DNA of 24,992 bases from Promethearchaeota archaeon (GCA_016930515.1 JAFGGO010000107.1:1-24992), one strand, 5' to 3'; shown: positions 4,005-23,973, numbered from the stretch's first letter. The notes: a model not told the origin generated them from the letters alone. Program-made: numbers and translations.

Positions 4005-5033
4005 TTATATAGATTTATAATTCTCTAGCTTTATCATCCAATAGACTTCCTCAATCGTGCTAAGTAAGACCAACATCATGATTAAAACAACAATTCCCCG
4101 GGCAATTTCATAGAATTCAGGGCTTATTGTAATGATGGGAGGCATTTGATTTGGATCAATCCATGGAATCATTGCTGGATTTAAGATTACAAATATAAAC
4201 ATCATTGCACCACCTATTTTCGAACACATGATAGCACCTAAGATGATTTGGTGCGTTTGAGGCTTGGTGTTTCCGATAATTCCTCGGGTTAAGTTTAACG
4301 CTCCTTCAAGTATTGAAAAAATTCCCCAAACACGTAGGATCGTTAGTAAATTCAAGTCAAAATAATCTTCAATCCCAACAACGGGTTGTATGACGAGTAC
4401 AAATCCAATAATCATTCCGAAAATACCTTCTGCTATCTTACCTCCAGGTTTGACGAAAGGTTTTAATTGCTTTCCCGTTTTAGGTGAAACCGGTAAACCA
4501 AGATCTATGGCTTTTTGCAATTCCCTTCCACTTTTCTTTATATCTACTTTTGATTTAAAATCTTCAGGAAAATATCCTTCCATTGACAAAGCAACGAAAA
4601 TAATTGTAATTACTGCAAATGCCATTGCCAATCCTCCAAAAATATTAAAAGTTATATTTTCCCAGTTGCCAAAGATAGCGTTAACAATAAAAGAAATTAT
4701 GTTTATCGCAATTATTATGGATAAAACTATCGTCAACGCTTTTTTATACAGTGGAAATAATTCTTCTGATATGAAATATTTTGGAGTTCCTCTCCTCTTA
4801 TATTCCTTCGCAATATTATTTGGAGTGCCCATTTGTTCGATTGCCAGCCTTATAGACTGTTCTGTTGGCTCACCCGTCTCTGAGAGTTCCGTCGCCTTAT
4901 CCCAAATATGCTCCTCGAGTTGATCTAAAACATCCCGTAGTTCGTCCTTCTTATCTTTAATCCACTCTGGAAGTTTCTCTTTAACTTCCTTTATAAAATC
5001 CTTTACAAGATTTTGTATGATTTTTTCGCTCAT
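4005..5033 (-). CDS. HAAS (permease-prefix) domain multi-pass membrane protein
   Basis: N-terminal helical domain with LEEHIWDK...AIEQMGTPNNIAKEY, followed by about 6 hydrophobic segments. ATGA overlap with the upstream PadR gene. Confidence 0.75.
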   Translation of the reverse strand: MSEKIIQNLVKDFIKEVKEKLPEWIKDKKDELRDVLDQLEEHIWDKATELSETGEPTEQSIRLAIEQMGTPNNIAKEYKRRGTPKYFISEELFPLYKKALTIVLSIIIAINIISFIVNAIFGNWENITFNIFGGLAMAFAVITIIFVALSMEGYFPEDFKSKVDIKKSGRELQKAIDLGLPVSPKTGKQLKPFVKPGGKIAEGIFGMIIGFVLVIQPVVGIEDYFDLNLLTILRVWGIFSILEGALNLTRGIIGNTKPQTHQIILGAIMCSKIGGAMMFIFVILNPAMIPWIDPNQMPPIITISPEFYEIARGIVVLIMMLVLLSTIEEVYWMIKLENYKSI

Positions 5034-5581
5034 TTTATCAAACCTCTTTCTGTTAATTCTTTTTCAATATTATGACCACAAATATCACAAAATCGCAGTC
5101 CATTTTCAAGATATTCCTCTACATTTATTTTGTTTGCACAATCGGGGCAAAAATAAAATCGCTGTTCTAGCGTAATGTTCACGCCAAAAAGTGGCGAAAT
5201 TGCCTCGGATAGCTTTGAATAAAACCCTTCCATTCTGTTATAGGCCTTGAGACCAGATTCCGTCATGTAATAATTCTTTCTTAGCCTTCCATCTACTTCT
5301 ACACGTTGTGCTTCAATGAATCCTTCCTTTTCAACTTTCCTTAATAGTGGATATAAAGTTCCTTCCTCAATTATAAGGATGTCTTCTGTTTTTTCGCTTA
5401 AATCCCTAATTATCTGATACCCATGAATGCCCGCTCTTCCCGAATTTTTAATTACCGAAAGAACGCATAGCGTGCTTATTCCCCTGTTTATTTCAGATTC
5501 AAACTTTTCAATGAAATCTCTAAATTTTATATCTGTACCGATTAAGGATTTAGGATCTGGTTCCTTTATTCGTTTTATCAA
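5030..5581 (-). CDS. PadR-family transcriptional regulator with C-terminal zinc ribbon
   Basis: HGYQII, EEGTLYPLLRKVEKEGFI, GRLRKNYYMTESG; C-terminal CPDC...CDICG. Start placed at TTG 5581 because GAGGTGA lies 7 nt upstream; the ORF track extends to ATG 5608. Confidence 0.85.
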   Translation of the reverse strand: MIKRIKEPDPKSLIGTDIKFRDFIEKFESEINRGISTLCVLSVIKNSGRAGIHGYQIIRDLSEKTEDILIIEEGTLYPLLRKVEKEGFIEAQRVEVDGRLRKNYYMTESGLKAYNRMEGFYSKLSEAISPLFGVNITLEQRFYFCPDCANKINVEEYLENGLRFCDICGHNIEKELTERGLIK

Positions 5582-5795
5582 TAATTTATCACCTCTTATG
5601 ATACTCATTTTATTACTATATTATGTGTTATCCAATACTATATCCATAATTATACCATGCGGTCCTATGTATTAAAAGTTATGGGAGACCAATTTTTACA
5701 AAAATCTTGGACATAAGACCATATACAATTAGCCCAATAACACAATAAAAAACTTTTTTAACCCATATTAATGTCCTACTTGTCGTGCGAAAAAA

Positions 5796-5811: not shown

Positions 5812-5956
5812 TAGGTATTATCATTATTGATCAAGGGAGCAATTAAGATGTCAAATTGCTTTTTCCTTAATTTTAATTAGCAGTAATAATGTCTTCATTA
5901 TGATATTGCCAGTTAGAATTTGCATAATATTTCTCGAGGTGTTAATAATCCCAAGG

Positions 5957-6154
5957 ATGAATATTGAAGAAGCTTTAATAATGTTGGAAGGCTTTCAAGA
6001 TGCGCTTCAGGAGATCGTCAGAAATGTGGATGATATGGCGTTTAAATCGGATGTATATATGTTTTCGGTTTATCACCTGAAAAAAGTGGTTGAAAAGTAC
6101 AAACAATTCACAGAATCGAAAATATATAAACCACGAGAAGTTCGAGTTCTGTGA
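5957..6154 (+). CDS. Small helical hypothetical protein (65 aa from ATG; possibly starts at ATC 5948)
   Basis: Amphipathic helical pattern, SD-like GAGGTG at 5936-5941 and an upstream promoter. The ORF-track N-terminus from 5900 reads through the SD and is probably not real. Confidence 0.55.
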   Translation: MNIEEALIMLEGFQDALQEIVRNVDDMAFKSDVYMFSVYHLKKVVEKYKQFTESKIYKPREVRVL

Positions 6155-6293
6155 GATATGAATAAAATACTTGGAAATCTTCCATGATGTTAAATAAATC
6201 TTTAAATAATGATAGTTTTCGTTAATTTCAGAATCCTATATTATATTAACATTAATCTTTTAACTCATTTTTTACTTGCACAATTGAATAGAG

Positions 6294-7112
6294 ATGACAT
6301 TTAGTGAAAATCTCCAGGACAAATTAGAATGCCTAAAAAAGATCATAAGCAGAAAAAAAGTCATAGTAGCGTTTTCTGGAGGTGTTGATAGCTCTCTTCT
6401 CGCGTTTATTGCCCATAAATACGCAAAAGAAACGCTTCTCGTCACTGAAAATTCAATTTTATATCCAAGCGAAGAGATAGAAGAAACTAAAACCTTTGCT
6501 CTTAAATACGATATTCCCCATATGATAATTGAGCGAAATCCTTTAGAAGTAGAAGATTTTCGTTCTAACCCGAAAAATCGGTGTTATATATGTAAAAAAG
6601 GTTTATACAACGAAATTCTTCAAATTAAAGAAGAAAAAGGATACGATATGGTTTTAGATGGTTCAAACTACGATGATCTTCAAGATTTCCGTCCAGGAAT
6701 GCTAGCACTCCAAGAACTTTCTATAGACACTCCTTATTTGAATTGCAGGATAACTAAACAAGAAATACGCCTTATTTGCGAACAGTTCAATCTCGAAGTA
6801 AAGTCAAAACCTTCAATGGCGTGCTTTTCTTCCCGAATTCCTTATGGTCAGGATATTGACGAAAAAAAATTGAATAGAATAAGAGATGGTGAAAAATTTT
6901 TAAAAGAGTTCTTAAATATCAGACAAGTACGCGTCAGACACCACGATAATAATCTCGCCCGCATAGAAATAATGCCAGAAGAGCTTGTTGATGTTCTTGA
7001 TCTAAAAAAGCTATCCATAATTGTGAGTAAATTCAAAGATTTAGGATTTACATATATCACCCTTGATATGGAAGGATTTCGATCAGGTTCAATGAACGAA
7101 GTTTTAAACTGA
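6294..7112 (+). CDS. larE: ATP-dependent sulfur transferase LarE (PP-loop)
   Basis: AFSGGVDSS PP-loop, NRCYICK, DGSNYDD..DFRPG, PSMACFSSRIPYG, VRVRHH, ARIE, GFRSGSMN. Confidence 0.9.
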   Translation: MTFSENLQDKLECLKKIISRKKVIVAFSGGVDSSLLAFIAHKYAKETLLVTENSILYPSEEIEETKTFALKYDIPHMIIERNPLEVEDFRSNPKNRCYICKKGLYNEILQIKEEKGYDMVLDGSNYDDLQDFRPGMLALQELSIDTPYLNCRITKQEIRLICEQFNLEVKSKPSMACFSSRIPYGQDIDEKKLNRIRDGEKFLKEFLNIRQVRVRHHDNNLARIEIMPEELVDVLDLKKLSIIVSKFKDLGFTYITLDMEGFRSGSMNEVLN

Positions 7113-7115
7113 ACA

Positions 7116-8504
7116 TCACGAATCTTTAATATAAGCAATAATTCTTTTTCTTTTCTCAAGTGCTTTTTGGGCGGCTTGCTGTACATTTTCTTCCATAAAT
7201 TGAATCACTTCTGGAGTGTCTTCTCCTATTACCTGTTTGATTTTGGTATAAGCAGATTCTCTGAATCTCGGTAATATGGTTGTTTTACCAGTTTCTTTGA
7301 AAATCATTATAATTTCACCTGAATTTGTAACTTCTCCTATCTCCAAGCATTTTACGCCGATTTCTGTCAAATCGCGAACGATTCTATTTGAAACGCCTTC
7401 CGAGCAATAAATCAACAAGGAATCAAGTGAAACGCCTAAATAATCAACATTAATTTTTTTTAATAAATTAAAAACAATGGGATCTACGAGTTTTCTTACC
7501 TGCTCTTCGTAAATGACGACGCCACAGTTTGCTTCGTAATTAATTTCGTATAGATCCCCTCGAAGACCACCATTAGTTACGTCGCACATTGCTCTTATAT
7601 GCTCTTGATAATCTGATTTAAGGATTTTTTCGCAAGCTTTTAAAAATCTCACATTTATGGTTTGCTTGACGACTTCGGGATTTCCTGAATAAATCGCCGT
7701 GGTTGTTATGGTTCCTCCTCCTGCTCCCTCGGTCATCAAGATCTTGTCGCCAGGTTGAATGTTTTTTCGAGCTAAGAGTCGTTTACTTGCAAGACCAACG
7801 GCGCTAATACCACCTACAAATCGATTTCCAATTACCATATCGCCTCCAATTCTCAATGTGGAGCCTGCAGTGATCGGAACATTCATTAACTCAGATATAG
7901 CAGAAACGCCCGCCATGAAATCGAATAATTTTCCAACATCCGCATCGTCTCCGAGGTGTACATCAATCATTATTGAAACAGGCTTTGAACCCTTCACGTA
8001 AAGGTCGCGAAGGCAAGCTCTGGTAACGTGAAAACCACATATAAAGGGAAAATCGCTCAGACGCGAGTGAATGCCTTCCATCTTCGATACTACGATTAAA
8101 TCTTCTGAGTTGTACGAATTACCCTGAAAATCCTTGATATCAATTAGTCTTATCGCTCCAGCGTCATCTAAGGAACTTGGAGATAAATATGCTTTTTGCT
8201 CGGTCTCTGATAACTCCGTTATGAGTTTATGCACGAAAAAATCTCCTGCTCCCCTGCACCCTACACCTTGCTTTCCAATGGTAACTTCCGCCTTGTTGAT
8301 TTCTAATAGATCTTTCAAAAAGGGTTCCGATATGTTTTTAATATCGCTTTTTTTACATTCCTCTAAAACGGCTTTTGCAAGCTTTTTTGCTTCCTCAAAG
8401 CGCAAATCCTTATAATCCTTGTACGCTTGGATCAATCTATCAATGATAGATTGTTCTGTTTCTCCTTTCTCAATTAATCTTCTTGTTAGGCCTTCCAAGT
8501 CCAA
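7116..8504 (-). CDS. Archaeal AIR synthase (PurM/HypE/SelD fold)-related protein
   Basis: TTG start MDLEG; GVGCRGAGDFFVH, DDAG, EGIHSRLSDFPF, RDLYVKG, GSTLRIGGD, GAGGGT, DVTNGG. Confidence 0.8.
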   Translation of the reverse strand: MDLEGLTRRLIEKGETEQSIIDRLIQAYKDYKDLRFEEAKKLAKAVLEECKKSDIKNISEPFLKDLLEINKAEVTIGKQGVGCRGAGDFFVHKLITELSETEQKAYLSPSSLDDAGAIRLIDIKDFQGNSYNSEDLIVVSKMEGIHSRLSDFPFICGFHVTRACLRDLYVKGSKPVSIMIDVHLGDDADVGKLFDFMAGVSAISELMNVPITAGSTLRIGGDMVIGNRFVGGISAVGLASKRLLARKNIQPGDKILMTEGAGGGTITTTAIYSGNPEVVKQTINVRFLKACEKILKSDYQEHIRAMCDVTNGGLRGDLYEINYEANCGVVIYEEQVRKLVDPIVFNLLKKINVDYLGVSLDSLLIYCSEGVSNRIVRDLTEIGVKCLEIGEVTNSGEIIMIFKETGKTTILPRFRESAYTKIKQVIGEDTPEVIQFMEENVQQAAQKALEKRKRIIAYIKDS

Positions 8505-8948
8505 TTTTTATTTCACTTCTTTCTTCTCATTTTGAATCCTGTAAAATTAGAATGTAAGTCTTCGCTATAAGCCCAGTTGTAATATCTGAAGTCTTACTTT
8601 TATCTACATTACTCTTTTAAATGCTAAAAAAATTTTATAATTTATTATTGCTAATGATTGTGTTTTTTTTTGTTTGCGAGAGGAAAAAACGCTTGAGTAA
8701 TGAAAAAAAAAGGTTTAAAACTAGTATGGATTATTACAAACCTCCCTATAGAGGTTGTTTGGGATGAAATAAAGGAAAATTTAAAAAATAGGATCAATAT
8801 AGAACTTTTTTTTAGATCCCCTTAATTTGTTTTTTAAATAATCTAAATTTAAATAAACTCTCAATAATTCATTAAATCTTAAATATTTCTGAATGGGGTT
8901 CATATATAAGATTAATGATATGAATCGTCCCTTTTTTAACAATTAATT

Positions 8949-8999
8949 TCTGCTTTTCTAGGGAGGCTAAATTTAAATAAAATGAAACATTCCCTCTAT
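8949..8999 (+). promoter_or_regulatory. feoA1 upstream motif (TCTGC-N4-CTAGG-N3-GCTAA, TATA-like, CCCTCTAT)
   Basis: Conserved with near-identical spacing upstream of feoA2 (10000-10049). Contains TTTAAATA at 8972-8979. Confidence 0.55.
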
Positions 9000-9032
9000 T
9001 AATAATTAAACAATTATTCTGTGAATCTTTAA

Positions 9033-9338
9033 ATGTTGAGACAATTTATGAAAGCTTCTAAAGACTCAAAAACTGAAAATCACAACAAAAACTTGATACA
9101 ATGTTTATCGTCGTGCGATATGGGATCTGAACTCATTGTTATAAGGGTGGAAGCAGGACAAATGGCAAAAAACCGACTCGCCAATTTGGGAATCGTTCCA
9201 GGAGCTAAAATAATAAAGAAAAAGTCTGCTCCGTTTAATGGCCCCGTAGAAATAGATGTAAAAGGATCGTCTCTCGTATTGGGAAGGGGATTAGCCGCAA
9301 AAATAATTGTAAATTGTGGTAATAGTTGTAAATTTTAA
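9033..9338 (+). CDS. feoA: Ferrous iron transport protein A (copy 1)
   Basis: RLANLGIVPG, APFNGPVEIDVKGSSLVLGRGLAAKIIV. Confidence 0.9.
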   Translation: MLRQFMKASKDSKTENHNKNLIQCLSSCDMGSELIVIRVEAGQMAKNRLANLGIVPGAKIIKKKSAPFNGPVEIDVKGSSLVLGRGLAAKIIVNCGNSCKF

Positions 9339-9355
9339 TTAATTAGTTCTAGTTT

Positions 9356-9796
9356 TTATCTACAACTCACCTTAGAAAATTTTAATACACATTCAATGTC
9401 CTTATAAAGATCTTGAATCGTGCAAGGTTTATTCGTGAAAATCATGGCGCCTATTGATAATGCTTGATTTTTTACTGATGTATCAGCACTGATAAATATT
9501 ATTTTAAGATCTTGGTCCATTTCTAACATTTCTTTAGTGGTATCAAGTCCATTTTTTAATGGCATTCGATGATCCATTATTATTATATCGGGTTTAGGTG
9601 AAAAACTTTTGAACATGTCAATAGCTTCCTTGCCATTTTTAGCTGAGGCCAAGACCGTATAACCTTTCAAATTTAATGCCTTTTCGTACAATATTCTTAA
9701 ATATGTGTCGTCTTCAACAATGAAAATACTTGTAATGATTTTCACCAAATAATTATTTTCAGTAAAATTCTTCCTTAGTAGTTGGATCGTCTCCAT
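9356..9796 (-). CDS. Stand-alone CheY-like response regulator receiver (true start probably near 9736-9748)
   Basis: IFIVEDD, AKNG, PDIIIMDHRMPLKNG (phosphoacceptor Asp), IIFISA, KP. No output domain. Confidence 0.9.
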   Translation of the reverse strand: METIQLLRKNFTENNYLVKIITSIFIVEDDTYLRILYEKALNLKGYTVLASAKNGKEAIDMFKSFSPKPDIIIMDHRMPLKNGLDTTKEMLEMDQDLKIIFISADTSVKNQALSIGAMIFTNKPCTIQDLYKDIECVLKFSKVSCR

Positions 9797-9999
9797 AATA
9801 TTAATATAAAACCAGATTTATAATAGTGATCCTTTTATTATAAAAATAGTTGAGAATCTTGAAATTTACTTTTAAAGCATAATAAATCCTAGATATAAAC
9901 CAGAATTGAAATTATATCAAAAATAAGAATATAATATGGATATTTTAATCAATTATATAGAAAAAAACATATTTATGACCATTAAAATTAGAGAATTTA

Positions 10000-10049
10000 T
10001 CTGCACAACTAGGCGCACCAAAAAGCTTTAATAAGAAAAAACCCTCTAT
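10000..10049 (+). promoter_or_regulatory. feoA2-feoB upstream motif (TCTGC-N4-CTAGG-N3-ACCAA, BRE/TATA, CCCTCTAT)
   Basis: Paralogous to 8949-8999. AAAAAGCTTTAATAA resembles BRE-TATA. Confidence 0.55.
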
Positions 10050-10078
10050 AATATTAAGAAAAATGAGATATATTAGAT

Positions 10079-10414
10079 ATGAATAAAAAAAATAATAACA
10101 ATTTCGATATTACCCAAAATTCTAAATGCGATTTCAATGAGATATATCTTGGAAACGAAAAAGGTTTGTTCGAATGTTATTTAACCGAATGTTCGAAAGG
10201 TGAAGAAATTATTGTCTCTAGAGTTGAGATTGGTCCCAAGGAAAAAAAAAGACTCGCAAATTTGGGAATCGTACCTGATGTAAAATTGATCAAAAAAAAA
10301 AGTGCCCCACTAAAAGGACCAATTGAAATATTTGTTAAAACAACATCCTTAGTACTTGGTAGAGGATTAGCTTCTAAAATAAGAGTAAAATGCCAAAGCG
10401 CATGTCCAAGATAA
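10079..10414 (+). CDS. feoA: Ferrous iron transport protein A (copy 2)
   Basis: RLANLGIVPD, APLKGPIEIFVK..SLVLGRGLASKIRV. Lies directly upstream of feoB. Confidence 0.9.
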   Translation: MNKKNNNNFDITQNSKCDFNEIYLGNEKGLFECYLTECSKGEEIIVSRVEIGPKEKKRLANLGIVPDVKLIKKKSAPLKGPIEIFVKTTSLVLGRGLASKIRVKCQSACPR

Positions 10415-10468
10415 TCTAATATGAAAAATCAATAAATTAACAAATTTAATCAATTGAAAGGATAAATT

Positions 10469-12649
10469 ATGAGTTGTCATTTACCTAAAAAGGGAAAGAA
10501 AAAATATTGGAATAAGAAAAGTAATAGTTTGGTTCACCAGTCCAGAATGAAAGATGTAAAATATAAAGAAACGATAAATGTGGCTCTTGCTGGTAATCCA
10601 AATGTGGGAAAATCCGTTATCTTCAATCAATTAACAGGTCTTTCTCAAACAATAGGAAATTGGCCTGGTAAAACAGTAGAAAGAATGGAAGGGAAATTGG
10701 ACTTTTTAGGCTATCACTTTAATATTGTTGATTTACCTGGAATTTATTCTCTTTCAACCTTTTCTTTAGAAGAAATTGTAAGCAGGGAATACATAGTCTC
10801 GGATGATGTGGATTTGATTATAAATGTCGTGGACGCAACGAATTTGGAAAGAAACCTTTTTTTCACCTTTCAACTCCTCGAATTGAGAGTTCCTATGATT
10901 ATTGCGATAAATCAAATGGATTTACTTAGGAGAAGAAACATAATGCTTGATTTTAAAAAGCTAGAGGAAACCTTCCAATTGCCCGTTCTTCCAGTTGTTG
11001 CCGTTCACGGTAAAGGAGTTCACGAACTACTCGAGGAAGCCATAGAAATGGTAGTTTTTCGGCATCCTCATCGCCATTACAGCAGGGAGGGTAGAAGATC
11101 TAGGGATCATCACGGTCATGGCTATCATCGTACGGAACATATACACGAAAAGGTTGATGAAAGCGTGCTAGTAAAAAAAGAATTTCGATTCCCAGATTTA
11201 AAAAGTGTTAGCTCATATGGTAAAGAAGTAGAGACTAAGATTGGCGTCCTTCAATCTTCAATAAAAAAAAAAGGAGTCTTACTTGAGAAACATAATTATC
11301 CTTCAAGATTTTTAGCCATTAAAGTTCTTGAAAACGATGATGAGATCAAGAAAATATTTGACATTAGCGAAGAAACAAGGGAAATTTTGAAACAAGCAGA
11401 TGATATGAGAAATTCTTTAGAAGAATTACATGGTGAAGACATTAATACCATAATTAGCTCAGAAATCTACAATAATATAACCCAAATTACAAACCAAGTA
11501 TTAATTATAAATCGTAGGGAAAAGCGGACCTCTTTAGCTGATAGATTAGACCATTTGACGACTCATTCTTTTTGGGGCTATGTTATTTTAATTTTGGTCC
11601 TTGTAGGAACTTTTTTATTCACCTTTATGATTGGAGATTTTATAGGTGGTTTATTAGATGACGCTTTTGGAACTTGGAGCGAATCTATATATGCTGAATT
11701 TGGAGAAAACGCAATTGGAGTAGTTATACTATGGGACGGTGCATTAGGGGGATTAATAGGTGCTATTGGTGGTGTATTGGTTTATGTAGTCCCGTTTTTT
11801 TTTATGATTGAAATTCTCCAAGATTCAGGTTATTTACCTCGGGCAGCGTTTTTAATGGATAAATTCATGCATTACATTGGGGTCCACGGTAAAACAATCA
11901 TTCCCATGATTCTCGGGTTTGGATGCAATGTTCCAGCGTGCGCTGGGTGCAGGATAATGGAAACAGAAAGGGAAAAAAAGATCTCCATAGCTCTTACATC
12001 CTTAGTTCCTTGCGCCGCTACGATGACGGTCGTAATGGGGTTAGTCGGGCGATATTTAGGATTAGGATGGGTGTTAGTCTTATTTATAATCAATTTTGTG
12101 GTTATTATTTTTGTTGGAAAACTATTGAATAAAAAAATGCCAGGGCAATGCACGGAACTGATAATGGAAATGCATGAATATAGGATCCCTAATTATAAAG
12201 TGATCTTTTCGCAAACATGGGTTCGATCGAAAGAGTTCATATTCAAGGCATTGCCAATCATAATCGGATTAGGAATCATATTGGAAATTCTGGTTCTTCT
12301 CAACGCATTAGAACCTATTAATATCGTGCTTTCACCAATAACTTTCTTTTGGCTGGGGTTACCTATTACAACGGGGGTCTTTCTCATATACGGAATACTA
12401 CGCAAAGAATTAACGCTCGTTCTATTAGCTTTGTTTGCAGGAGATTTAAGTACATTTTTACAGCCGCATCAAATGATCGTTTTTAGCTTGGTAACGATGT
12501 TATATATACCCTGCTTGACAACTATTGTCGTAATTGCGAAGCAAACTAGTTGGAAATATGCAATCCAACTTGCATTGCTCGAAATATTCATAGCAATATT
12601 TATTGGTGGTATAATCAACTGGGGATATGTGTTATTTACCAGCCTTTAA
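10469..12649 (+). CDS. feoB: Ferrous iron transporter FeoB with His-rich insertion
   Basis: GNPNVGKS, GNWPGKTVE, DLPGIYSL, VVDATNLERNL, DSGYLPRAAF, GFGCNVPA, VPC, GILRKE, LYIPC, and a multi-TM C-terminus. Confidence 0.95.
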   Translation: MSCHLPKKGKKKYWNKKSNSLVHQSRMKDVKYKETINVALAGNPNVGKSVIFNQLTGLSQTIGNWPGKTVERMEGKLDFLGYHFNIVDLPGIYSLSTFSLEEIVSREYIVSDDVDLIINVVDATNLERNLFFTFQLLELRVPMIIAINQMDLLRRRNIMLDFKKLEETFQLPVLPVVAVHGKGVHELLEEAIEMVVFRHPHRHYSREGRRSRDHHGHGYHRTEHIHEKVDESVLVKKEFRFPDLKSVSSYGKEVETKIGVLQSSIKKKGVLLEKHNYPSRFLAIKVLENDDEIKKIFDISEETREILKQADDMRNSLEELHGEDINTIISSEIYNNITQITNQVLIINRREKRTSLADRLDHLTTHSFWGYVILILVLVGTFLFTFMIGDFIGGLLDDAFGTWSESIYAEFGENAIGVVILWDGALGGLIGAIGGVLVYVVPFFFMIEILQDSGYLPRAAFLMDKFMHYIGVHGKTIIPMILGFGCNVPACAGCRIMETEREKKISIALTSLVPCAATMTVVMGLVGRYLGLGWVLVLFIINFVVIIFVGKLLNKKMPGQCTELIMEMHEYRIPNYKVIFSQTWVRSKEFIFKALPIIIGLGIILEILVLLNALEPINIVLSPITFFWLGLPITTGVFLIYGILRKELTLVLLALFAGDLSTFLQPHQMIVFSLVTMLYIPCLTTIVVIAKQTSWKYAIQLALLEIFIAIFIGGIINWGYVLFTSL

Positions 12650-12721
12650 CCATTTTCTTTCAAATCTTATAAATTTAAATTACTGTCAATATAATTTACA
12701 TCATAACATAACAACAAGTTA

Positions 12722-13738
12722 ATGTTAATGAAAGTACGAATAACAACTCCTTGTCGAATACATTTATCGCTAATCGACGAAAATGGATATACAGGAAGGG
12801 TTGATGGCGGCATCGGGCTAATGCTGGACAAGCCAAATGTTGTCTTTGAAGCCTCAAATTCAGCAAGCGAATTTCAAATAGAATGTAATCATTATTATCG
12901 TGAATCGATTGATGTTATTAACGAAAAGGCTTCAAAAGTCTTTAAAATGTTTAACATCAGCAATAAAAATTTTCACTTCAACCTAGAAAAATATTATCCA
13001 AGTCATGTGGGTTTAGGCTCAAAAACCCAATTGAGTTTGGCGATTGCAACTGCGATAACTTTATTAAAAAATAAGGAGATAACCGTTTGTAATCTTACAA
13101 AACTAGTGGAAAGAGGAGGTACTTCCGGTATTGGTTGGAGAGGCTTTGAAAAGGGTGGCTTTGTATTAGATGCGGGTCACGAATTTGGAATGGGTAAAGA
13201 AAAAGAAACATTCTTGCCCTCTTCGGCTTCTAATTCTGCAGATCCGGCTCTAACGATTTTAAGATATCCCATACCTGAACATTGGCGATTCGTGATAATT
13301 ATTCCTAATGTGAAGAAAGGGGCGTATGGAGATGAGGAAGTGAGTATTTTTCAAAAATATGCTCCAATACCTAGAGAAGAAGTGAATGAGGTATCGCATC
13401 AAATTCTCATGAAAATTTTACCAGGAATAATAAAGCAAAATTTAACTTGTTTCGGAGAAGGATTGAAGAGAATTCAAAAAATTGGTTTTAAAAAAATTGA
13501 AATAAGCCTCCAACACGAAATTGTTAAAAATTTGCTTTCATTTTTAGAAAACTATGGGGTTAAAGGATATGCAATGTCGTCCTTTGGGCCGAGCGTTATC
13601 GGAATAACCGAGTCCGATTCTGAAGCCGAAGAACTAAGAAATGCCGTAAAAAAATTTCTCAAACCAGATAATGAACATGTCTATATTTCCCGTCCGAACA
13701 ACACGGGAGCAAAAATAGAATTTTTTGAATGTGAATAG
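12722..13738 (+). CDS. mptG: Beta-ribofuranosylaminobenzene 5'-phosphate (RFAP) synthase, GHMP-kinase fold
   Basis: TPCRIHLSLID, GRVDGGIG, HVGLGSKTQL, RGGTSGIG, GGFVLDAGH, FLPSS, MSSFGP. Start may be ATG 12728. Confidence 0.9.
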   Translation: MLMKVRITTPCRIHLSLIDENGYTGRVDGGIGLMLDKPNVVFEASNSASEFQIECNHYYRESIDVINEKASKVFKMFNISNKNFHFNLEKYYPSHVGLGSKTQLSLAIATAITLLKNKEITVCNLTKLVERGGTSGIGWRGFEKGGFVLDAGHEFGMGKEKETFLPSSASNSADPALTILRYPIPEHWRFVIIIPNVKKGAYGDEEVSIFQKYAPIPREEVNEVSHQILMKILPGIIKQNLTCFGEGLKRIQKIGFKKIEISLQHEIVKNLLSFLENYGVKGYAMSSFGPSVIGITESDSEAEELRNAVKKFLKPDNEHVYISRPNNTGAKIEFFECE

Positions 13739-14132
13739 CTTAATGGACGAAAAAATATTCTTCTCTGAAAATTTAAGCAATAGAGAAAGAGCTTGTTTTG
13801 AAGCGGGAATTAAATTAGGTGCTCTTTACCATATTTTATGTGGAATTCCAATATCTTCTGATGTGACAGTAATTTCTTCCATCGAACGAGGGATAGAAGC
13901 TGCAATTTCTTGTCAACCTTATGTAAAACGAGTTAAAATCTCATTAAATCTGGAGAAGATCAAAGGAAGGAAAGAAAATGAATTTGATTACGATGAAGTA
14001 TCGGGAAAAATTATCAATGCTCATTTAATCCTTCAATACGAAAATGTGATTTTAGAAGCGAAAATCGATTGGATCGAAGATATGGATTATCCTCTAATGT
14101 ATATTGAAAAAATATACGATTCAAATCGATAA
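13725..14132 (+). CDS. mptD: Archaeal dihydroneopterin aldolase
   Basis: RERACFEAGIKLGALYH...GIPIS, QPYV, YPLMYI. Overlaps or abuts mptG; start could also be GTG 13731 or ATG 13743. Confidence 0.9.
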   Translation: MNVNSLMDEKIFFSENLSNRERACFEAGIKLGALYHILCGIPISSDVTVISSIERGIEAAISCQPYVKRVKISLNLEKIKGRKENEFDYDEVSGKIINAHLILQYENVILEAKIDWIEDMDYPLMYIEKIYDSNR

Positions 14133-14199
14133 AAAAAGAATGTTCAAAGGTTATTTGGAAAGAGGGAAGAAATAAAAAATCTTAATAGAAAAACAATCC

Positions 14200-14913
14200 T
14201 TAATATGGAGCCCCTAAATAGCGATTTATTAAATCAACTGTTTCTAAAGCTTGATAATTTTTCCCAAATCTTTTAATATTATTTATATTACTCGTAAGCT
14301 GAGACTTAAGTTCATTAAATAAAACTTCATTTTGTCTTTCTCGAGCTATTTTTATTCTGGTTGCTATAATAATTGATTCCAAAGCAAGATTCTCTGCACG
14401 ATTAAATAATTTTGCCGAGTTTCTAAAAAATTTTATTTTTAAGGGTTTTAAATAGAATTCAATCAGAGAAACATCTCCTAATAAATCCTTTTTTATGACA
14501 GAATTTTCTTTTGAAACAACACATATGAGCACGGCCCAAGATTGTTTGATAAAAGGAATTGATATTTTTGAGGGTGATGAATCAGAATTAAACAAATAGC
14601 TAAGCTCCTCGTATTCGTAATATTCCCTTGGGAAAATAATGCCAAGATCCTCGTTTTTTAAAGCAGATAATGCGTATAAATGGATGTCGTCTACAAGATT
14701 GATGGTTATGATTTTGGTTTCTTTTAGATTTTGTAGCGTTTTTGTTTTTGGAAACGGCTTGATCGTGATAAAATTATCTTGGGTGAGTCTGATACCCATT
14801 GCCGAGGTATTAGGGATTTTTTTTATTTTTGAAATGGTTGTTGCTAAGATTTCGTATAAATAATTTGGTTTGAATCCTAAATCGATAGGATAAAGATTTT
14901 TAGTATCCATCAC
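14200..14913 (-). CDS. DUF447-family protein (flavin-binding split-barrel-like N-terminus, helical C-terminus)
   Basis: YEILATT...PNTSAMGI, KTLQNL..., NRAENLALESIIIATR. The pterin gene context fits. Confidence 0.8.
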   Translation of the reverse strand: MMDTKNLYPIDLGFKPNYLYEILATTISKIKKIPNTSAMGIRLTQDNFITIKPFPKTKTLQNLKETKIITINLVDDIHLYALSALKNEDLGIIFPREYYEYEELSYLFNSDSSPSKISIPFIKQSWAVLICVVSKENSVIKKDLLGDVSLIEFYLKPLKIKFFRNSAKLFNRAENLALESIIIATRIKIARERQNEVLFNELKSQLTSNINNIKRFGKNYQALETVDLINRYLGAPY

Positions 14914-15004
14914 ATTTACTAAAGGAATTGGAGTAAAAAATGTTTTATAATTTGTAGGATTGATTCAAATAAGTCATTAAAAATAAACAATAAACAATGA
15001 TTGA

Positions 15005-16108
15005 TTGATGCGCGTTCTCGGGATCGATCCTGGTACTAAGTCGTGGGATTTCTATGGCTTGGATTTCAGCAAGGAAAAAGAAAAAATTATATTAGACGCA
15101 TCGATTCCCTCTGCTGAACTCATTCAAAAACCTGAAAAAGTAATTTCGTTATTGAACTCCGTTGGATCAATTGATCTCATGGTTGCACCAAGTGGATTCG
15201 GTCTTCCCCTTAAAAGAGTAGAAGATTTAACGGAAAAAGACCTATTTCTGACTTTACTCAAGTTTGATAGCAAATATAAAGATAAGCTTTTAGGCTTAGG
15301 AGATGTCTTACGACTTATCAAGTCCGCTGGGTTTTCAGCGATGATAGTCCCTGGAGTCAAGCACCTCCCCACCGTTCCAAGATATCGCAAGGTTAACAAG
15401 GTTGATATGGGCACTGCCGATAAACTATGCACGGCAGTTGTAGGAATTCGAGATCAAATGCAAAGGGATAAAAAATTACCTCAAGAAACTAATTTTATCA
15501 TGATCGAGGTTGGATATGGATTTACGGCCGTTCTTGCTGTTGAAAACGGTCAAATCATCGACGGTATTGGTGGTTCTAACATTATGGGATTTAGAGCCTG
15601 TGGAAGCTTAGATGGAGAATTGGCTTATTTGATCAAAAATATCGAAAAAAAAAACATTTATCGGGGGGGAGTGGCATACATAGCGGGTTATGCAGATATG
15701 GGCTTGAAAGAAATAGCACTACTAGCAGAAAAGGACGATCAAACGAAAATGGCTCTTGATGCTTATATTTCAAGCGTTAAAAAATCGGTATACGCGATTG
15801 CTTCATCTTTCTCAAGTAAGGATAAAATCACGGAAATATTATTAGCTGGTAGAGGTGCTGAAATTCAATATTTAAGAGAAAACATTGTTTCGTCACTCAA
15901 GGATATTGCTTCCGCAAGATTAATGAGTTCCTATAGTCAAATAGCAAAGAGAGCGGCTCAAGGAGCTGCCTTCATTGCCAACGGTCTACTAGGTGGAAAC
16001 CTAAAAGCCATTACGGCTAATCTTCAATTAAAAGAAGCTTCAGGGTCGATATTGGATGATATTTTCATCCCGTTTGAAAAAGACAGGTTAATGAGTGATC
16101 TAAATTAA
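15005..16108 (+). CDS. DUF1464-family ASKHA (actin-like ATPase/kinase fold) protein
   Basis: VLGIDPGTKS, APSGFGLP, PGVKHLPTVPRYRKVNKVDMGTADK, GQIIDGIGG, LDGELAY, AAQGAAFIANGLLGG. Start probably ATG 15008. Confidence 0.85.
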   Translation: MMRVLGIDPGTKSWDFYGLDFSKEKEKIILDASIPSAELIQKPEKVISLLNSVGSIDLMVAPSGFGLPLKRVEDLTEKDLFLTLLKFDSKYKDKLLGLGDVLRLIKSAGFSAMIVPGVKHLPTVPRYRKVNKVDMGTADKLCTAVVGIRDQMQRDKKLPQETNFIMIEVGYGFTAVLAVENGQIIDGIGGSNIMGFRACGSLDGELAYLIKNIEKKNIYRGGVAYIAGYADMGLKEIALLAEKDDQTKMALDAYISSVKKSVYAIASSFSSKDKITEILLAGRGAEIQYLRENIVSSLKDIASARLMSSYSQIAKRAAQGAAFIANGLLGGNLKAITANLQLKEASGSILDDIFIPFEKDRLMSDLN

Positions 16109-17675
16109 TATCCTAATTATAACTGGTGAGCAAAGTAAAGCCATCGTAGAAGAGATCGTAAAATCGATTAAAAATCACGATATAACTGTTTACATGGCGC
16201 CTATTTCGGTTTCAGCGTTTTTATCGGAACAAATGACCGATGAAATTATTAATACTATTTCTTTAAGTGATTATTCCCTAATCCTTATTCCTGGATTTGT
16301 TCAATGGGATACTTCTCAATTAGAAAAAAAATATTCAATCAAAATTCGGAAAGGTCCAGAATTTGCTTCAGACATTCCCACAATAATTAAAAACATTGAT
16401 ATTATTGAATTATCAAATGAAATACCTGCTAATAGACTCTACGAAGCATCTGGTAGATCATTATATCATCAAATTGTTAAAGACGCATTTCTTCAAGCTG
16501 AAAAATCTTTAGATCAATCAACATTCTATATTAACCAGAATCGCTCGAATATCATAATAGGGGGTGGGCTACCTCCCCCTATCATTGCAGAGATCGTAAA
16601 TTCTACCGAAAAGAGCGATGAAAATATTTTAAAAAAAGCTAAGCACTACATCAAATCTGGTGCAAGCATCATTGATATAGGTTGCATATCAAATAAACCA
16701 AATCCAGAAAGAGTTAAAAAAATAATATCATTCCTTAGAGAAAAATTTGAAGTTTTATTGAGCGTGGATTCAATGGATCCAGGTGAAATTTTAGCCGCCG
16801 CTGAAGCTGGTATTGATCTCGTGTTAAGCGTTGATCTTGGAAATTATGGTGATTTATTAAGCCTTCCTAGAGATCTTACTCTCGTTATTTTACCAACAAA
16901 TGTAAAACAAGGATATTTCCCAAAGAATCCGTCTGAACGGGTTAAAAACTTACTCGATCTTACGAAAATATTATTAAAACTCGGATTTACAAAACTCATT
17001 GCAGATCCCTTGTTAGAATCTCCCATAGCACCTGGAATTTCCATATCGCTTGAAACCTATTTTCTTTACAACATGACAGTTTCCAAGGGAAATAATAAAG
17101 AATTACGCTTACCACTCTTCTTTGGGGTTTCGAATGTGGTAGAACTCGTGGATGTTGATTCTATTGGTATAAATGGCCTTCTTGCCGCTATTGCTATAGA
17201 ATTAAATGTTGGCGTTTTATTTACCGTGGAACATAGCGCTAAACTAATGAACGGAGTAAGGGAGCTAAAAGAATGTGTAAAACTGTGTTATCTTTCAAGA
17301 ACTAAAAAAGTTCCTCCAATAAATATAGGTATTGATTATTTTAGCGCCAAGGGAAAAATTAATCCAATTTCCCTTGATATTGATGAAAAAAGATCAATCG
17401 TTGTCAAGGAGCCAAACAAAGGTTATTTAATGGATGAAAAAGGATATTTCAAGATATATGTAAATCATTATGCAGGATTAATCTATGTATTATTTTTTTC
17501 TAATCAACACGAATTGAAATCATCCTTAATGGGACAAGACGCAGAATCTTTGAGTAAGAAAATTTTGGAATTGAAATTAACAACTGATATCTACCACGCA
17601 AATTATATAGGTCGGGAGTTAAGAATGGCAGAATTTTGCTTATTGTCAGGAAAACCTTACCTACAAGATGAATAA
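16104..17675 (+). CDS. Dihydropteroate synthase-like protein (N-terminal domain, pterin-binding TIM barrel, DUF4346-like C-terminus)
   Basis: IIAEI, GASIIDIG, SVDSMD, IADPLL, PLFFGVSNVVELVDVDSIGING, TVEHS.K, DEKGYFKIY, HANYIGREL...YLQDE. The frame opens at ATT 16104 (INILIITG), 30 codons upstream of the first ATG at 16194. Confidence 0.85.
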   Translation: MNILIITGEQSKAIVEEIVKSIKNHDITVYMAPISVSAFLSEQMTDEIINTISLSDYSLILIPGFVQWDTSQLEKKYSIKIRKGPEFASDIPTIIKNIDIIELSNEIPANRLYEASGRSLYHQIVKDAFLQAEKSLDQSTFYINQNRSNIIIGGGLPPPIIAEIVNSTEKSDENILKKAKHYIKSGASIIDIGCISNKPNPERVKKIISFLREKFEVLLSVDSMDPGEILAAAEAGIDLVLSVDLGNYGDLLSLPRDLTLVILPTNVKQGYFPKNPSERVKNLLDLTKILLKLGFTKLIADPLLESPIAPGISISLETYFLYNMTVSKGNNKELRLPLFFGVSNVVELVDVDSIGINGLLAAIAIELNVGVLFTVEHSAKLMNGVRELKECVKLCYLSRTKKVPPINIGIDYFSAKGKINPISLDIDEKRSIVVKEPNKGYLMDEKGYFKIYVNHYAGLIYVLFFSNQHELKSSLMGQDAESLSKKILELKLTTDIYHANYIGRELRMAEFCLLSGKPYLQDE

Positions 17676-17771
17676 CGCTATGGAAATATTTTTATAGTTC
17701 CTCCAAACTATTTTAACTGGAGTTTAAATATTGTTAATTGCATTAAAATAATGATTTCGAGCGTGTATTAA

Positions 17772-18413
17772 ATGAAAATAGGCATTATTGGTACGGGTAA
17801 GGTTGGAACGAGTTTAGGAAAAATTTGGTTTGAAAAAGGTCAAGAAATATTTTTTGGCTCAAGAGATCCCTACAAAGCAAGCAAATTGGCTGAAACTTTT
17901 AACGATAAAATTATAACGGGAACACATGCAGATGCCTCCAAATTCGGAGAAATTATAGTACTCGCAATTCCATGGTCTGCCGCAGAGGAAACCATTTCTT
18001 CTTTAGGCGATCTTAGCGGGAAAATAATTATAGATGTGATAAACGCCGTTGCACCGAATCTAGGAGGATTATTGATTGGTCATACAACTTCTGCGGCTGA
18101 AAAAATTCAAAGCTGGGCTAAAGGGGCTAAAGTGGTGAAAGCTCTAGGTGCATTTGATCCAGAATTTCTTTCAGAAGTTAAAAATAGGACGCCAAAACCA
18201 AGTCTTTTTATATCAGGAGACGATGCACAGGCAAAGTCTAAAGCAAAACAACTAGGAGAACTCATAGGATTTGAAGTCGTGGATTGCGGTCCTCTTAAGA
18301 ATGCGAGATTGCTCGAACCAGTTGGAATGTTATGGATCGAACTTGCTTATAATCAAGGTATGGGTCCTGGAATTGCTTTTAAGTTATTACACCATAGAAA
18401 ATTGCCCGAATAA
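17772..18413 (+). CDS. NADP oxidoreductase, F420-dependent family (Fno/NpdG-like)
   Basis: MKIGIIGTGKVG Rossmann motif, GSRDP, LAIPW, GKIIIDVIN, AKVVKA, GDDAQAK, DCGPLKNARLLEP. Confidence 0.8.
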   Translation: MKIGIIGTGKVGTSLGKIWFEKGQEIFFGSRDPYKASKLAETFNDKIITGTHADASKFGEIIVLAIPWSAAEETISSLGDLSGKIIIDVINAVAPNLGGLLIGHTTSAAEKIQSWAKGAKVVKALGAFDPEFLSEVKNRTPKPSLFISGDDAQAKSKAKQLGELIGFEVVDCGPLKNARLLEPVGMLWIELAYNQGMGPGIAFKLLHHRKLPE

Positions 18414-18421
18414 TAATAAAA

Positions 18422-18709
18422 TTAAATAATTTCGGAACAAACCTCGATTATAGCCCCAGGTTCGAGGAGAGGATTAAATTCAACCATATTCGTCCTTAAA
18501 TTCTTATTATGCGCCTCAAAAGCCTCCTTGTTGGCGTATTTTTCGTAAAAAAGAATGACATTTTTCTCTTTTTGAACCGTGTGTGTGATGTATTCCAAGC
18601 ATCCAGGTTCTGACGCCTTTATTTTCGGGATGACTTTCTTCAATATTGAAATTGCTTCTTCCATTTTTCCTTCTTTTACTACGACCCGAGCAATAATCGT
18701 AATTGTCAT
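18422..18709 (-). CDS. Antibiotic biosynthesis monooxygenase (ABM)/YgiN-like protein
   Basis: IIARVVVKEGK, SEPGCLEY, FYEKYANKEAFEAH; 95 aa. Confidence 0.85.
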   Translation of the reverse strand: MTITIIARVVVKEGKMEEAISILKKVIPKIKASEPGCLEYITHTVQKEKNVILFYEKYANKEAFEAHNKNLRTNMVEFNPLLEPGAIIEVCSEII

Positions 18710-18839
18710 GATATTTTTTCTCTTTTCATTTATATATTTTTAAATTCGATATTTAGCAAGGTTTTTGCTTGCTTTATAATTTTACTAATTAACATTCAAA
18801 AATGTTTTAAAAAATTATGGGGAAGAAGTAAATCGATTT

Positions 18840-18986
18840 ATGAGTAAGAGCTCAGCGTTAGGTATTAGTGGGATTATCATAGGTGCAGCAGGTTTGGGAT
18901 TAACTTGATTTACTTTTGGTCTTAATCAGGTTCAAAACACTGATAATGACTTGTTTTTCTATTTTAAAATAAATAAAGAGGCGTAA
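18840..18986 (+). pseudogene. Remnant of a single-pass membrane-anchored protein with an internal TGA (or a 22-aa peptide)
   Basis: ATG 18840 reads MSKSSALGISGIIIGAAGLGLT*FTFGLNQVQNTDNDLFFYFKINKEA*; TGA at 18906-18908 interrupts the hydrophobic helix. Not in the ORF track. Confidence 0.4.
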
Positions 18987-19042
18987 AAACATTATTTTAA
19001 AAAGAGTAGAGTTAATTTAATAAATTTAATATTTAATGAAAT

Positions 19043-19309
19043 TTATCTCCATCTTTTTTTCTTTTTCTTGCGCGTGATACCATCACCCTCGATTTTAGGG
19101 GTTATATCAACATCACACTCGGCAACGATAAACGCTAAATATACGGGGCCATAATTTCCAAAACGGGGATCAGAATGGACAGAGAAATTAATATCAATCA
19201 CTTTTGCGTTATTATCTGAGTCGCGCAAAATTCTTAAATTTTTATTGAGTTTTCTTGTAAACTCTGAAGGGTCGTCGTATTGACCTCCGACCACATACAC
19301 TTGCTTCAT
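19043..19309 (-). CDS. Small hypothetical protein, Cse60/DUF2758-like pattern, polybasic C-terminal tail (may start at ATA 19345)
   Basis: beta-alpha-beta-beta pattern (QVYVV, EFTRKLNKNL, VIDINFSV, YLAFIV); ends in RKKKKKRWR. Confidence 0.6.
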   Translation of the reverse strand: MKQVYVVGGQYDDPSEFTRKLNKNLRILRDSDNNAKVIDINFSVHSDPRFGNYGPVYLAFIVAECDVDITPKIEGDGITRKKKKKRWR

Positions 19310-19479
19310 CCTGATAATATTCTCAAACGGAGTAATCTTTTCTATTTTTCTTCACCTTTGGGATTCGATTTTGATGAATTTATTTTAAGGAAAATTCACA
19401 TTTTCTGGTATTTAATTAAAGGATAAAGCACTCTTATATTTTTAATTTTTATGTTAGAACTAAAAAAAATTATTTTTTG

Positions 19480-22502: not shown

Positions 22503-23672
22503 CTAAAAAAACCTTCCTCGTGAGTTATTTTCAAAAACAAGTTTTCCATTGATGAATACTTGCTTGATATTATGAGATCCTGTTCTCTGAACTATTAGAG
22601 TTGGAAGGATCTCTCTATTAAGTTGGCAATAATAATTTGAATCTTCCAAATCGATTACAAAAAAATCTGCTTTTTTACCTTTTGAAATAGATCCAATATT
22701 TGAATCTAGTTTAAAAATCCTTGCGGGATTAATGGTCACCATCTTTAACAATTCAAGTGGTGTTAAAAGACTCGAATCACTATCCTTGCCTAATACCCTT
22801 GCTATTCGATACAAATATCGTAGTTCCTCGAATAAATCTGGACTATTTGCCATGAGATTGTCGGTACCGATTGCTATTGGGACCTTCAAACTTAGAACTT
22901 CAAGAACGGGCGGAAATCCAACGCCAAAATAACCATTACATCTTGGACAAAGAACCAATGAAATATTCTTCCTAATAATCATTTCGATATCTTTTTTTAT
23001 TAATTGAGTTCCGTGAATCATCACATCAATAAGTTGGTCATTAACTATTTCGAATATTAACTCTTCGTCTCTTACAACTTCAGCACAATGACAAGCAACT
23101 TGTTTATTTTTAATTTTTTTAATTTCTTTCAAGATATTTTTTTCTTGAATTGAACCGTATTTGTAGCTAGATAAGCCAATTCCGTCAGTTAAATCAAATA
23201 CTACTTCTATTTCATTAACGCTTTTGTATCTTCCAAATATTAAACACTTGATGGAAGAGTCTTCTAACGCCTCTTTTAGTAATTTGGCTCCCGCTTCTCC
23301 CTCCTCGCGAAAATCAAAAAAACAAGTGATTCCATTAGAAAGTAGCTCTCGAATAGCGTGTTTAATGCCTACAATCTTGGTTAATCTATCTGTTATAGAT
23401 AAGAGATAGTGCTTGATGCCATTCGGTGGAGCGACCACGTCCTTGAGTGGCTTGTTGAATCCTTTTTCTTTGGCAAAACTGTCTCCAATATGAATGTGAG
23501 AATTGATAAAACCTGGAACGATTATTTTGTCTCTGAGAATTTTATCTTCGATGTTTTTATGAATTAATTCCACGATATTTCCATTTTCGTCAATTTCTAT
23601 TTGAATATCTTGTTTGAGTTCCAGTTCCTCTCCGATAAAACCGTATTTAAAGAAGAATGTTTTGTTAGACAA
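22503..23672 (-). CDS. Metal-dependent amidohydrolase, deaminase-type
   Basis: PGFINSHIHIGDS (HxH), DFREEG, CHCAE (HxxE), IHG, LCPRCN, IGTDN, GSISKGKKADF. TTG start with AGGTTGA upstream. Confidence 0.85.
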   Translation of the reverse strand: MSNKTFFFKYGFIGEELELKQDIQIEIDENGNIVELIHKNIEDKILRDKIIVPGFINSHIHIGDSFAKEKGFNKPLKDVVAPPNGIKHYLLSITDRLTKIVGIKHAIRELLSNGITCFFDFREEGEAGAKLLKEALEDSSIKCLIFGRYKSVNEIEVVFDLTDGIGLSSYKYGSIQEKNILKEIKKIKNKQVACHCAEVVRDEELIFEIVNDQLIDVMIHGTQLIKKDIEMIIRKNISLVLCPRCNGYFGVGFPPVLEVLSLKVPIAIGTDNLMANSPDLFEELRYLYRIARVLGKDSDSSLLTPLELLKMVTINPARIFKLDSNIGSISKGKKADFFVIDLEDSNYYCQLNREILPTLIVQRTGSHNIKQVFINGKLVFENNSRGRFF

Positions 23673-23973
23673 TAATTCAACCTGTATTAATTTTATAAAT
23701 ATGTAAAATGATTATGTCGATAATATAGTATTGCATGAGGTGGAGAAGTGATATTAAAATAAAATCACTATAGTTAATTTGAGAATCTTTTTTAAATTTG
23801 ACATTAGAATTCGTATAAGGTTTTCTTTAAACGAATATTATTTTATTTATCAATTGGTTTTCTATGTTCTTAAAGATGTATTTTTATAATACTTTACCGT
23901 AGGATATGCCAAAGTGTTAAAATGAATTCATCTTTTTCTTACTCAGAATAAGTGATTATTATCTAGAAATAGC

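Follow-up and report, generated by a model that had tools for sequence, protein, structure and literature searches.

Near-cognate codons as probable translation starts behind Shine-Dalgarno motifs in an Asgard archaeon

Translation can begin at codons other than AUG, GUG and UUG. In bacteria, AUU and AUA starts behind a Shine-Dalgarno (SD) sequence are known from infC of Escherichia coli, which encodes the initiation factor IF3 and is autoregulated through its AUU start, and from pcnB. Mitochondria, with their AT-rich genomes, routinely start at ATA, ATT and ATC, but they do so with a changed code, a modified tRNA-Met and no SD. Here we describe such near-cognate starts in a stretch of DNA of 24,992 nucleotides (nt) from a Promethearchaeota archaeon (GCA_016930515.1 JAFGGO010000107.1:1-24992; hereafter the window) and in the genome to which it belongs. 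A sequence-only reading of the window had noticed an SD-like motif followed after 5–6 nt by ATT, ATA or ATC (together ATH) at four genes, and had interpreted this as a possible sign of relaxed start selection on SD-led mRNAs. The coordinates of all four sites are right, the pattern exceeds chance across the genome, and the interpretation is borne out both by the exchange of start codons between orthologs and by genome-wide enrichment: in this Asgard lineage, SD-led ATT, ATA, ATC and ACG codons are very probably genuine sites of initiation.

The likeness to infC is twofold. A near-cognate codon lies at a site positioned by the SD, where it would be read by the initiator tRNA, and the gene of a fidelity factor itself has a near-cognate start (here ATT or ATC in the gene for aIF1), which would again allow feedback. 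However, aIF1 is a homolog of eIF1 and unrelated to IF3, and where bacteria have a handful of such genes per genome, there are tens to hundreds here, including some that start with ACG. With mitochondria the lineage shares ATH starts in an AT-rich genome, but ATA encodes Ile inside genes and the starts appear to depend on the SD. In eukaryotes, near-cognate initiation at CUG, ACG, AUU and other codons is policed by eIF1, eIF5 and 5MP, and eIF1 is autoregulated via the poor context of its own start (PMC5714202, PMC13754004, PMC4705826). The codon set one base from AUG, the homologous factor (eIF1/aIF1) and the weak start of that factor, here a putative sensor, are common to both. On the other hand, eukaryotes select the start by cap-dependent scanning and Kozak context and mostly gain extra isoforms or upstream open reading frames from near-cognate codons, whereas here SD pairing would set the site and the codon would be the sole start of ordinary genes.

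Archaeal precedents are few. For the tubulin gene AtubA in a metagenome-assembled genome (MAG) of the Kariarchaeaceae (Heimdallarchaeia), “a rare ATT start codon” has been proposed (PMC13394414). This, too, is an Asgard gene annotated too short at its N-terminus, with an upstream ATT at a plausible distance from a ribosome-binding site, but it is a single gene, without genome-wide or comparative analysis (PMC13394414). In ribosome profiling of Haloferax volcanii, about 30% of the putative alternative initiation sites were near-cognate, and the authors set these aside as possible false positives (PMC7261190). Those sites are additional or alternative ones, unlike the sole, conserved starts of core genes considered here. 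A search of the literature yielded no systematic account of such starts for Asgard archaea. To our knowledge, this would be the first known case in archaea of near-cognate initiation that is both genome-wide and conserved.

The window is contig C160 of the metagenome bin G000 (4.0 Mb, 190 contigs, 35% G+C, 94% complete, 5.3% contamination). No 16S gene was found in this bin, and the anti-SD was therefore taken from relatives: the 16S 3' end reads GGAUCACCUCC in five of them, one from the same family, so that the expected SD is any sub-word of GGAGGTGATCC. The words enriched before first ATGs are GAGGT, AGGTG, GGTGA and GGAGG. When spacing is counted up to the start codon from the final G in the GGAGG register (“aligned spacing”), ATG starts peak at 8–10 nt. 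(A duplex-energy SD score barely distinguished ATG starts from gene bodies.) The four sites consist of GAGTGA at 16093–16098, 5 nt and ATT 16104 on the plus strand (site 1); GGTGA at 9746–9742, 5 nt and ATT 9736 on the minus strand (site 2); AGGTGA at 19357–19352, 6 nt and ATA 19345 on the minus strand (site 3); and GAGGTG at 5936–5941, 6 nt and ATC 5948 on the plus strand (site 4). All four motifs match the anti-SD, with an aligned spacing of 8–9.

Is this arrangement more frequent than expected? In-frame codons that precede the first ATG, GTG or TTG by 6 codons or more were counted behind exact SD matches of at least 5 nt in 3278 non-overlapping stop-to-stop open reading frames (ORFs) of at least 100 codons, and the number observed at aligned spacings of 9–10 was set against that expected from control spacings in the same phase. 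ATH occurred 40 times vs 17.3 expected (p=2e-6) and ACG 11 times vs 1.1 (p=4e-8); the excess of CTG was not significant (3 vs 1.0, p=0.08), and all other codons together showed no enrichment (85 vs 113). Compared with the other codons, the odds ratio was 3.1 for ATH (Fisher test, p=5e-7) and 12.8 for ACG. The four codons with the highest rates (ACG, CTG, ATT and ATA) are each one base from ATG. ATH, and ACG with it, is thus enriched at the very SD spacing used by ATG. By these counts ACG belongs in the set of start codons, which had been drawn too narrowly in the sequence-only reading, and CTG probably does as well. In a broader candidate set, comprising the first 60 codons of every ORF, ACG was still significant. 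The ATH peak recurs in the first 1.2 Mb of G026, a complete genome that belongs to the same order but to a different family (11 vs 3.7, p=0.0016), while that stretch gave no ACG signal. Chance would hold that ATH codons are simply frequent in an AT-rich genome (they account for 9.5% of the codons in coding sequence and 11% of the triplets between genes) and that the true starts are the nearest canonical ATG, GTG or TTG; yet a peak at ATG-type spacing that is confined to near-cognate codons is not what it predicts.

A start-codon-agnostic expectation-maximization model, with 61 start types, an SD feature and dicodon coding potential, placed its mass on TTT, AAA and AAT and was discarded, because coding potential (0.13 nat per codon) is too weak to fix boundaries. 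The metagene profile of codon log-odds around the candidates shows a weak shift, from -0.12 upstream to +0.04 downstream, which is suggestive at best.

The proteins themselves provide a second line of evidence. Among 20 SD-led candidates drawn from a list of 67, the Pfam domain begins before the first canonical codon in 13. These are, with the proposed start and the number of the first canonical codon in brackets, FEN1 (ATC, 55; XPG_N from residue 6), rubrerythrin (ATA, 101), a zinc-ribbon protein (ATT, 99), a phosphodiesterase (ATT, 76), a SIS-domain protein (ACG, 75), a radical SAM enzyme (ATA, 53), the XPD helicase (ATA, 33), a cytidylyltransferase (ATT, 13), a P-type ATPase (ATT, 20), a reverse transcriptase (ACG, 22), a cyclase (ACG, 15), a DUF166 protein (ATT, 35) and a ferredoxin-nitroreductase (ATT, 12). 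The FEN1 gene (G000:C126:24504) has ATC after an in-frame TGA, and the aligned codon in relatives, before the conserved GVKINE, is ATG (21) or TTG (5); called from its first canonical codon, the protein would lose half of its XPG_N domain. In the cyclase, the ACG is aligned with ATG (10), TTG (1) or ATA (2) before the conserved KFIDLS. (ACG candidates in G000 include cyclase, SIS, reverse transcriptase and methyltransferase genes, and a second FEN1-like gene, 33% identical, lies on C116.) At sites 1 and 3, in FEN1, in aIF1 and in five orthologs of the receiver at site 2, the interval from the upstream in-frame stop to the conserved protein contains no canonical start, and starting further downstream would cost catalytic N-terminal parts. 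In G000 itself, in-frame canonical codons are present at sites 2 and 4, as chance placement of ATH would have it; taken over all the genes, however, that explanation appears very unlikely.

Table 1. Candidate start regions in the window and the genes that they precede (nt = nucleotides).
Feature	Position	Strand	Remarks
AGAGGTGAT + 6 nt + TTG 5581	5579..5596	-	canonical SD-led start of PadR-family gene
SD GAGGTG (site 4)	5936..5941	+	aligned spacing 8 to ATC 5948, 17 to ATG 5957
Small gene, no Pfam family (site 4)	5948..6154	+	start ATC 5948 or ATG 5957
Single-domain response-regulator receiver gene (site 2)	9356..9736	-	Pfam Response_reg; proposed ATT start 9736, in-frame GTG 9745 remains alternative
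SD GGTGA (site 2)	9742..9746	-	aligned spacing to ATT 9736 = 8
DUF1464 gene upstream of site 1	15005..16108	+	Pfam DUF1464, E=5.6e-89; TAA stop 16106-16108
SD element GTGATC (site 1)	16095..16100	+	perfect 6-mer complement of 16S 3' end GAUCAC; inside 3' end of DUF1464 gene
Dihydropteroate-synthase-like gene (DUF6513 + Pterin_bind + PterinBD-DUF4346), 523 codons (site 1)	16104..17675	+	proposed ATT start 16104
Small conserved gene, no Pfam family, 100 codons (site 3)	19043..19345	-	proposed ATA start 19345
SD AGGTGA (site 3)	19352..19357	-	contains in-frame TGA 19354-19352; aligned spacing to ATA = 9
AGGTTGA + 4 nt + TTG 23672	23670..23683	-	amidohydrolase gene start

At site 1 (Table 1), GTGATC matches the anti-SD best; its aligned spacing from the ATT is 8 and thus within the ATG peak. 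The ATT directly follows an in-frame TAA (16101–16103), and the next ATG, GTG or TTG is the ATG at 16194. Counted from the ATT, residues 2–86 match positions 2–86 of the 86 in DUF6513, with a score below the Pfam cut-off. Orthologs are present in 28 of 31 relatives, mostly aligned from residue 1–3 and with open frames just a few codons longer. In five genomes of different genera (G000, G014, G008, G006 and G007), the ATT immediately or almost immediately follows an in-frame stop, without a canonical codon; seven genomes have GTG or TTG 2–3 codons upstream, and in G009 and G020 there is an ATG at exactly the aligned position.

The dihydropteroate-synthase-like gene overlaps the upstream DUF1464 gene, a pairing (15005–17675) that is kept across the family and separated only in G009. 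Might the overlap itself explain the unusual start? Ribosomes that finish DUF1464 at its TAA could restart on the overlapping ATT, in which case the relaxed codon stringency would stem from coupling and would not be a property of the lineage. The ATT (16104–16106) shares one base with that stop, most relatives have the same layout, and the SD lies inside the upstream gene. However, most of the other supported cases do not overlap anything and are preceded by intergenic SDs and in-frame stops, and in G009 the two genes lie apart, the second having its own SD and ATG. As the explanation of site 1, termination-reinitiation is a possible but rather doubtful one; it is also compatible with near-cognate initiation and does not replace it, and translational coupling may contribute there. 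A programmed frameshift fusing DUF1464 to the downstream gene was considered as well and rejected: relatives have ATG, GTG or TTG starts of their own, the G009 genes are separate, and AAT-TAA would give tRNA-Asn no re-pairing in the +1 frame.

At site 3, the motif contains an in-frame TGA, so that the frame opens just two codons before the ATA. GGTGA-N5-ATA is retained in two congeners, as are the residues after it, KIEKITPFENIIR, where all changes are synonymous. The first ATG of the gene, at 19309, is ACG in one congener (G004), and the distant G018 and G016 have ATG exactly aligned with the ATA, 12 residues before the position of the downstream ATG. The A run between SD and ATA (19346–19351, minus strand) is one base longer in G000 than in the two congeners, so that the motif's GTG, in frame in the congeners, is out of frame in G000: the distance from motif to ATA is conserved (within the optimum), the frame of the GTG is not.

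That extra A, which throws the congeners' GTG out of frame, could also be read as an error. On such a reading, the ATH codons, the in-frame stops and the additional base would be assembly artefacts or the mutations of decaying genes, in keeping with the fragmented and partly contaminated state of the bin (190 contigs, 5.3% contamination) and with the FEN1 ATC being found only in G000, against ATG or TTG in 26 relatives. Yet many genomes that were assembled independently and belong to different genera share these codons at matching positions, the frames are full length and show no other damage, and essential genes are affected (aIF1, FEN1, XPD). Furthermore, an independent Logan assembly, probably of the same source sample, contains a contig identical over 15900–19500 at a depth of 11. 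Artefact or decay is thus less probable even than chance and can hardly be credited.

At site 2, the codon aligned with the ATT in 13 related receiver loci is ATA (7), ATG (2), TTG (2) or GTG (1). Each of the 13 has a purine-rich, SD-like motif upstream, clear in most and weak in G008 and G009, and in five of the ATA loci the stretch from the in-frame stop to the conserved FIVEDD contains no canonical codon. In G000, the GTG at 9745 lies three codons before the ATT, inside the motif and without an SD of its own; judged from the sequence alone, it may instead be the G000 start. Orthologs thus exchange ATG, GTG, TTG, ATA and ATT at one and the same position at sites 1, 2 and 3, and in FEN1, the cyclase and aIF1 as well, and sites 1, 2 and 3 are most likely near-cognate starts, as had been suspected. 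Standard gene finders would therefore shorten these proteins, which the sequence-only reading had also anticipated: the public calls at sites 1 and 3 are truncated forms of 493 and 88 amino acids.

How many genes are affected? The SD-based excess corresponds to at least about 35 genes, or 1%, and about one-sixth of the SD-led starts would be near-cognate. In 75 ORFs, 40 or more codons precede the first canonical one, where the frequencies of stops and starts between genes predict 24 such ORFs; for 60 or more codons the numbers are 32 vs 2. If every excess ORF were real, this would imply about 10–20% of genes, an uncalibrated figure that is probably an overestimate. In 329 reciprocal best-hit pairs between G000 and G026, alignments that start 5 or more residues ahead of the first canonical codon were seen for 3.3% of the G000 and 4.6% of the G026 genes, and those that start 8 or more residues ahead for 2.1% and 2.4%, respectively. 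Some of these extensions are false, as chance would produce. (The region upstream of the L21e gene, on the plus strand of G000:C139, aligns at the protein level with G026, with ATC or ATT directly after the stop, but its good TTG/ATG start fits the canonical N-terminus, and the upstream match is a conserved leader or fortuitous, so that short “extensions” can mislead.) Thirty ORFs were sampled at random from the 155 that have 30 or more pre-canonical codons; among them, three extensions were supported by Pfam and about six ORFs fit a canonical start, again as expected from chance; the rest were uninformative, so that the extension is backed in 3 of about 9 informative ORFs. As a rough estimate from these sequences, near-cognate starts may serve about 1–10% of genes. 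All supported cases that were found without an SD criterion, in the random sample or among the reciprocal best hits, have an SD of at least 5 nt, compared with about 10–14% of ATG starts, and near-cognate starts therefore appear to be SD-dependent.

The gene for aIF1 itself, the factor that proofreads the choice of start codon, is a single SUI1-domain gene (G000:C31) and belongs to this class, and inspecting it, as the sequence-only reading had proposed, revealed a conserved ATT start. An in-frame TGA is followed by AAA GAG CGT ATT AAA GAC GAC GAT ATT TGC (zinc knuckle), without a canonical codon. In most of the 23 family genomes examined, AAAGGTTGTGA is kept 8–9 nt before the ATT (ATC in one genus). 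About 20 of the 23 start with ATT or ATC, while in the other three (G012, G009 and G034) an in-frame GTG or ATA may be used instead. Codons from the ATT onward are conserved and those before it vary freely. In G016 the motif lies one base closer, which brings its GTG into frame; the motif is therefore the ribosome-binding site and not the start. The aligned start in the sister family is ATA, TTG or GTG; within this order, ATG never occupies that position. In other parts of the phylum, aIF1 starts with ATG in eight families, GTG in some, CTG in two and ATA in three, and one of the CTG cases has an in-frame TGA one codon upstream. This suggests a negative feedback on aIF1 like that of IF3 and eIF1, whose own starts are of the weak kind that these factors discriminate against.

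How would such codons be decoded? A changed genetic code, with ATA read as Met in the manner of mitochondria, was rejected, since ATA, ATT and ATC interchange at conserved Ile positions in the receiver and in other alignments. Archaea are known to modify C34 of tRNA-Ile2 to agmatidine, by which it reads AUA. A comparable device dedicated to initiation, either an initiator tRNA with a C34 modified for AUA or an additional initiator-like tRNA whose anticodon reads AUH, could thus take the place of relaxed proofreading. ATA and ATT do dominate the supported cases, and the incomplete tRNA set of the MAG leaves room for an extra tRNA. However, ACG, with its second-position mismatch, is at least as strongly enriched, CTG starts occur in aIF1 of another family, the interchange at internal Ile positions bespeaks a standard code, and one altered anticodon would leave mismatches at all three positions unexplained. 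A dedicated device is accordingly an improbable explanation. The only tRNA with a CAT anticodon that was detected in the bin (G000:C140:10573-10703) is 131 nt long, apparently with two introns, and many other tRNA matches in the bin are 100–135 nt long. In 1.2 Mb of G026, too, an initiator tRNA was not found.

Several observations weigh against near-cognate initiation. In the broader set of the first 60 codons of every ORF, which is diluted, the excess of ATA and ATT was non-significant. An exact SD 5-mer precedes only about 10–14% of first ATGs, and with SD use so modest, SD-based counts would catch only part of the near-cognate starts. The statistic on long pre-canonical ORFs is uncalibrated, and the estimates of prevalence span a tenfold range. 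Neither ARAGORN, nor an anticodon-arm pattern, nor the 27 Rfam tRNA hits yielded an initiator tRNA in G000. As to RNA, no run is listed with the stretch, and two metatranscriptomes of the same study lack it. The individual sites have weaknesses of their own. At site 1, the C-terminal Asn codon and stop of the upstream gene (AAT TAA/TAG) are conserved and overlap the ATT in relatives, so that part of the conservation of the ATT is forced. Site 2 has three in-frame canonical codons upstream (GTG 9745 within the motif, TTG 9748 and ATG 9796), which had gone unmentioned in the sequence-only reading, and at site 4 there is a conserved ATG 9 nt downstream of the ATC.

If near-cognate codons are nevertheless used as proposed, the small ribosomal subunit would be positioned by SD pairing with sub-words of GGAGGUGAUCC, which would place the P site about 8–10 nt downstream of the GGAGG core. 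There, the initiator Met-tRNA would be accepted not only on AUG, GUG and UUG, but also on AUU, AUA, AUC, ACG and probably CUG, and the first residue of the resulting proteins would presumably be Met. Near-cognate codons would be the only start of roughly 1–10% of genes, drifting in and out of ATG, GTG and TTG between species. The AUU start of aIF1 would close a loop, in which low aIF1 leads to more near-cognate initiation and this, in turn, to more aIF1. We lean, if only slightly, towards extending this to the whole order of this archaeon and probably to further Asgard families: initiation anchored by the SD with relaxed codon checking, in which AUU, AUA, AUC, ACG and CUG are regular starts for several percent of genes and homeostasis is provided by the near-cognate start of aIF1.

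Why does this matter? Asgard proteomes serve to reconstruct the origin of eukaryotes, and if near-cognate starts are this common, the N-termini of several percent of Asgard genes would be missing from the databases, among them signal peptides, zinc knuckles and catalytic N-terminal domains. The eIF1 homolog would, moreover, have a weak start comparable with those by which bacteria control IF3 and eukaryotes eIF1, and SD-anchored initiation of this kind would parallel, in archaea, the near-cognate initiation and the eIF1 autoregulation of eukaryotes, of which it may be a precursor.

Site 4 is the least clear of the four. Motif, spacing and ATC are where they had been described, but either the ATC or the ATG at 5957 may be the start. 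That ATG lies two codons past the ATC, and a GTG at 5939 and an ATG at 5900 are in frame as well. ATG starts genome-wide are at background at the spacing of 17 that the ATG at 5957 would require. The sole ortholog found (G003) has the same layout, GGGGTG-N6-ATT-N6-ATG.

The two TTG starts at 5581 and 23672, which had been noted behind similar motifs, both check out (Table 1); upstream of the former, an ATG at 5608 is in frame, without an SD. The PadR-family regulator gene (5030–5608, minus strand) overlaps by 4 nt a gene that starts with a HAAS domain (4005–5033, minus strand), forming a PadR-HAAS pair. The alignment of the HAAS gene with G026 extends 8 residues upstream of its ATG, yet that ATG is conserved in both genomes.

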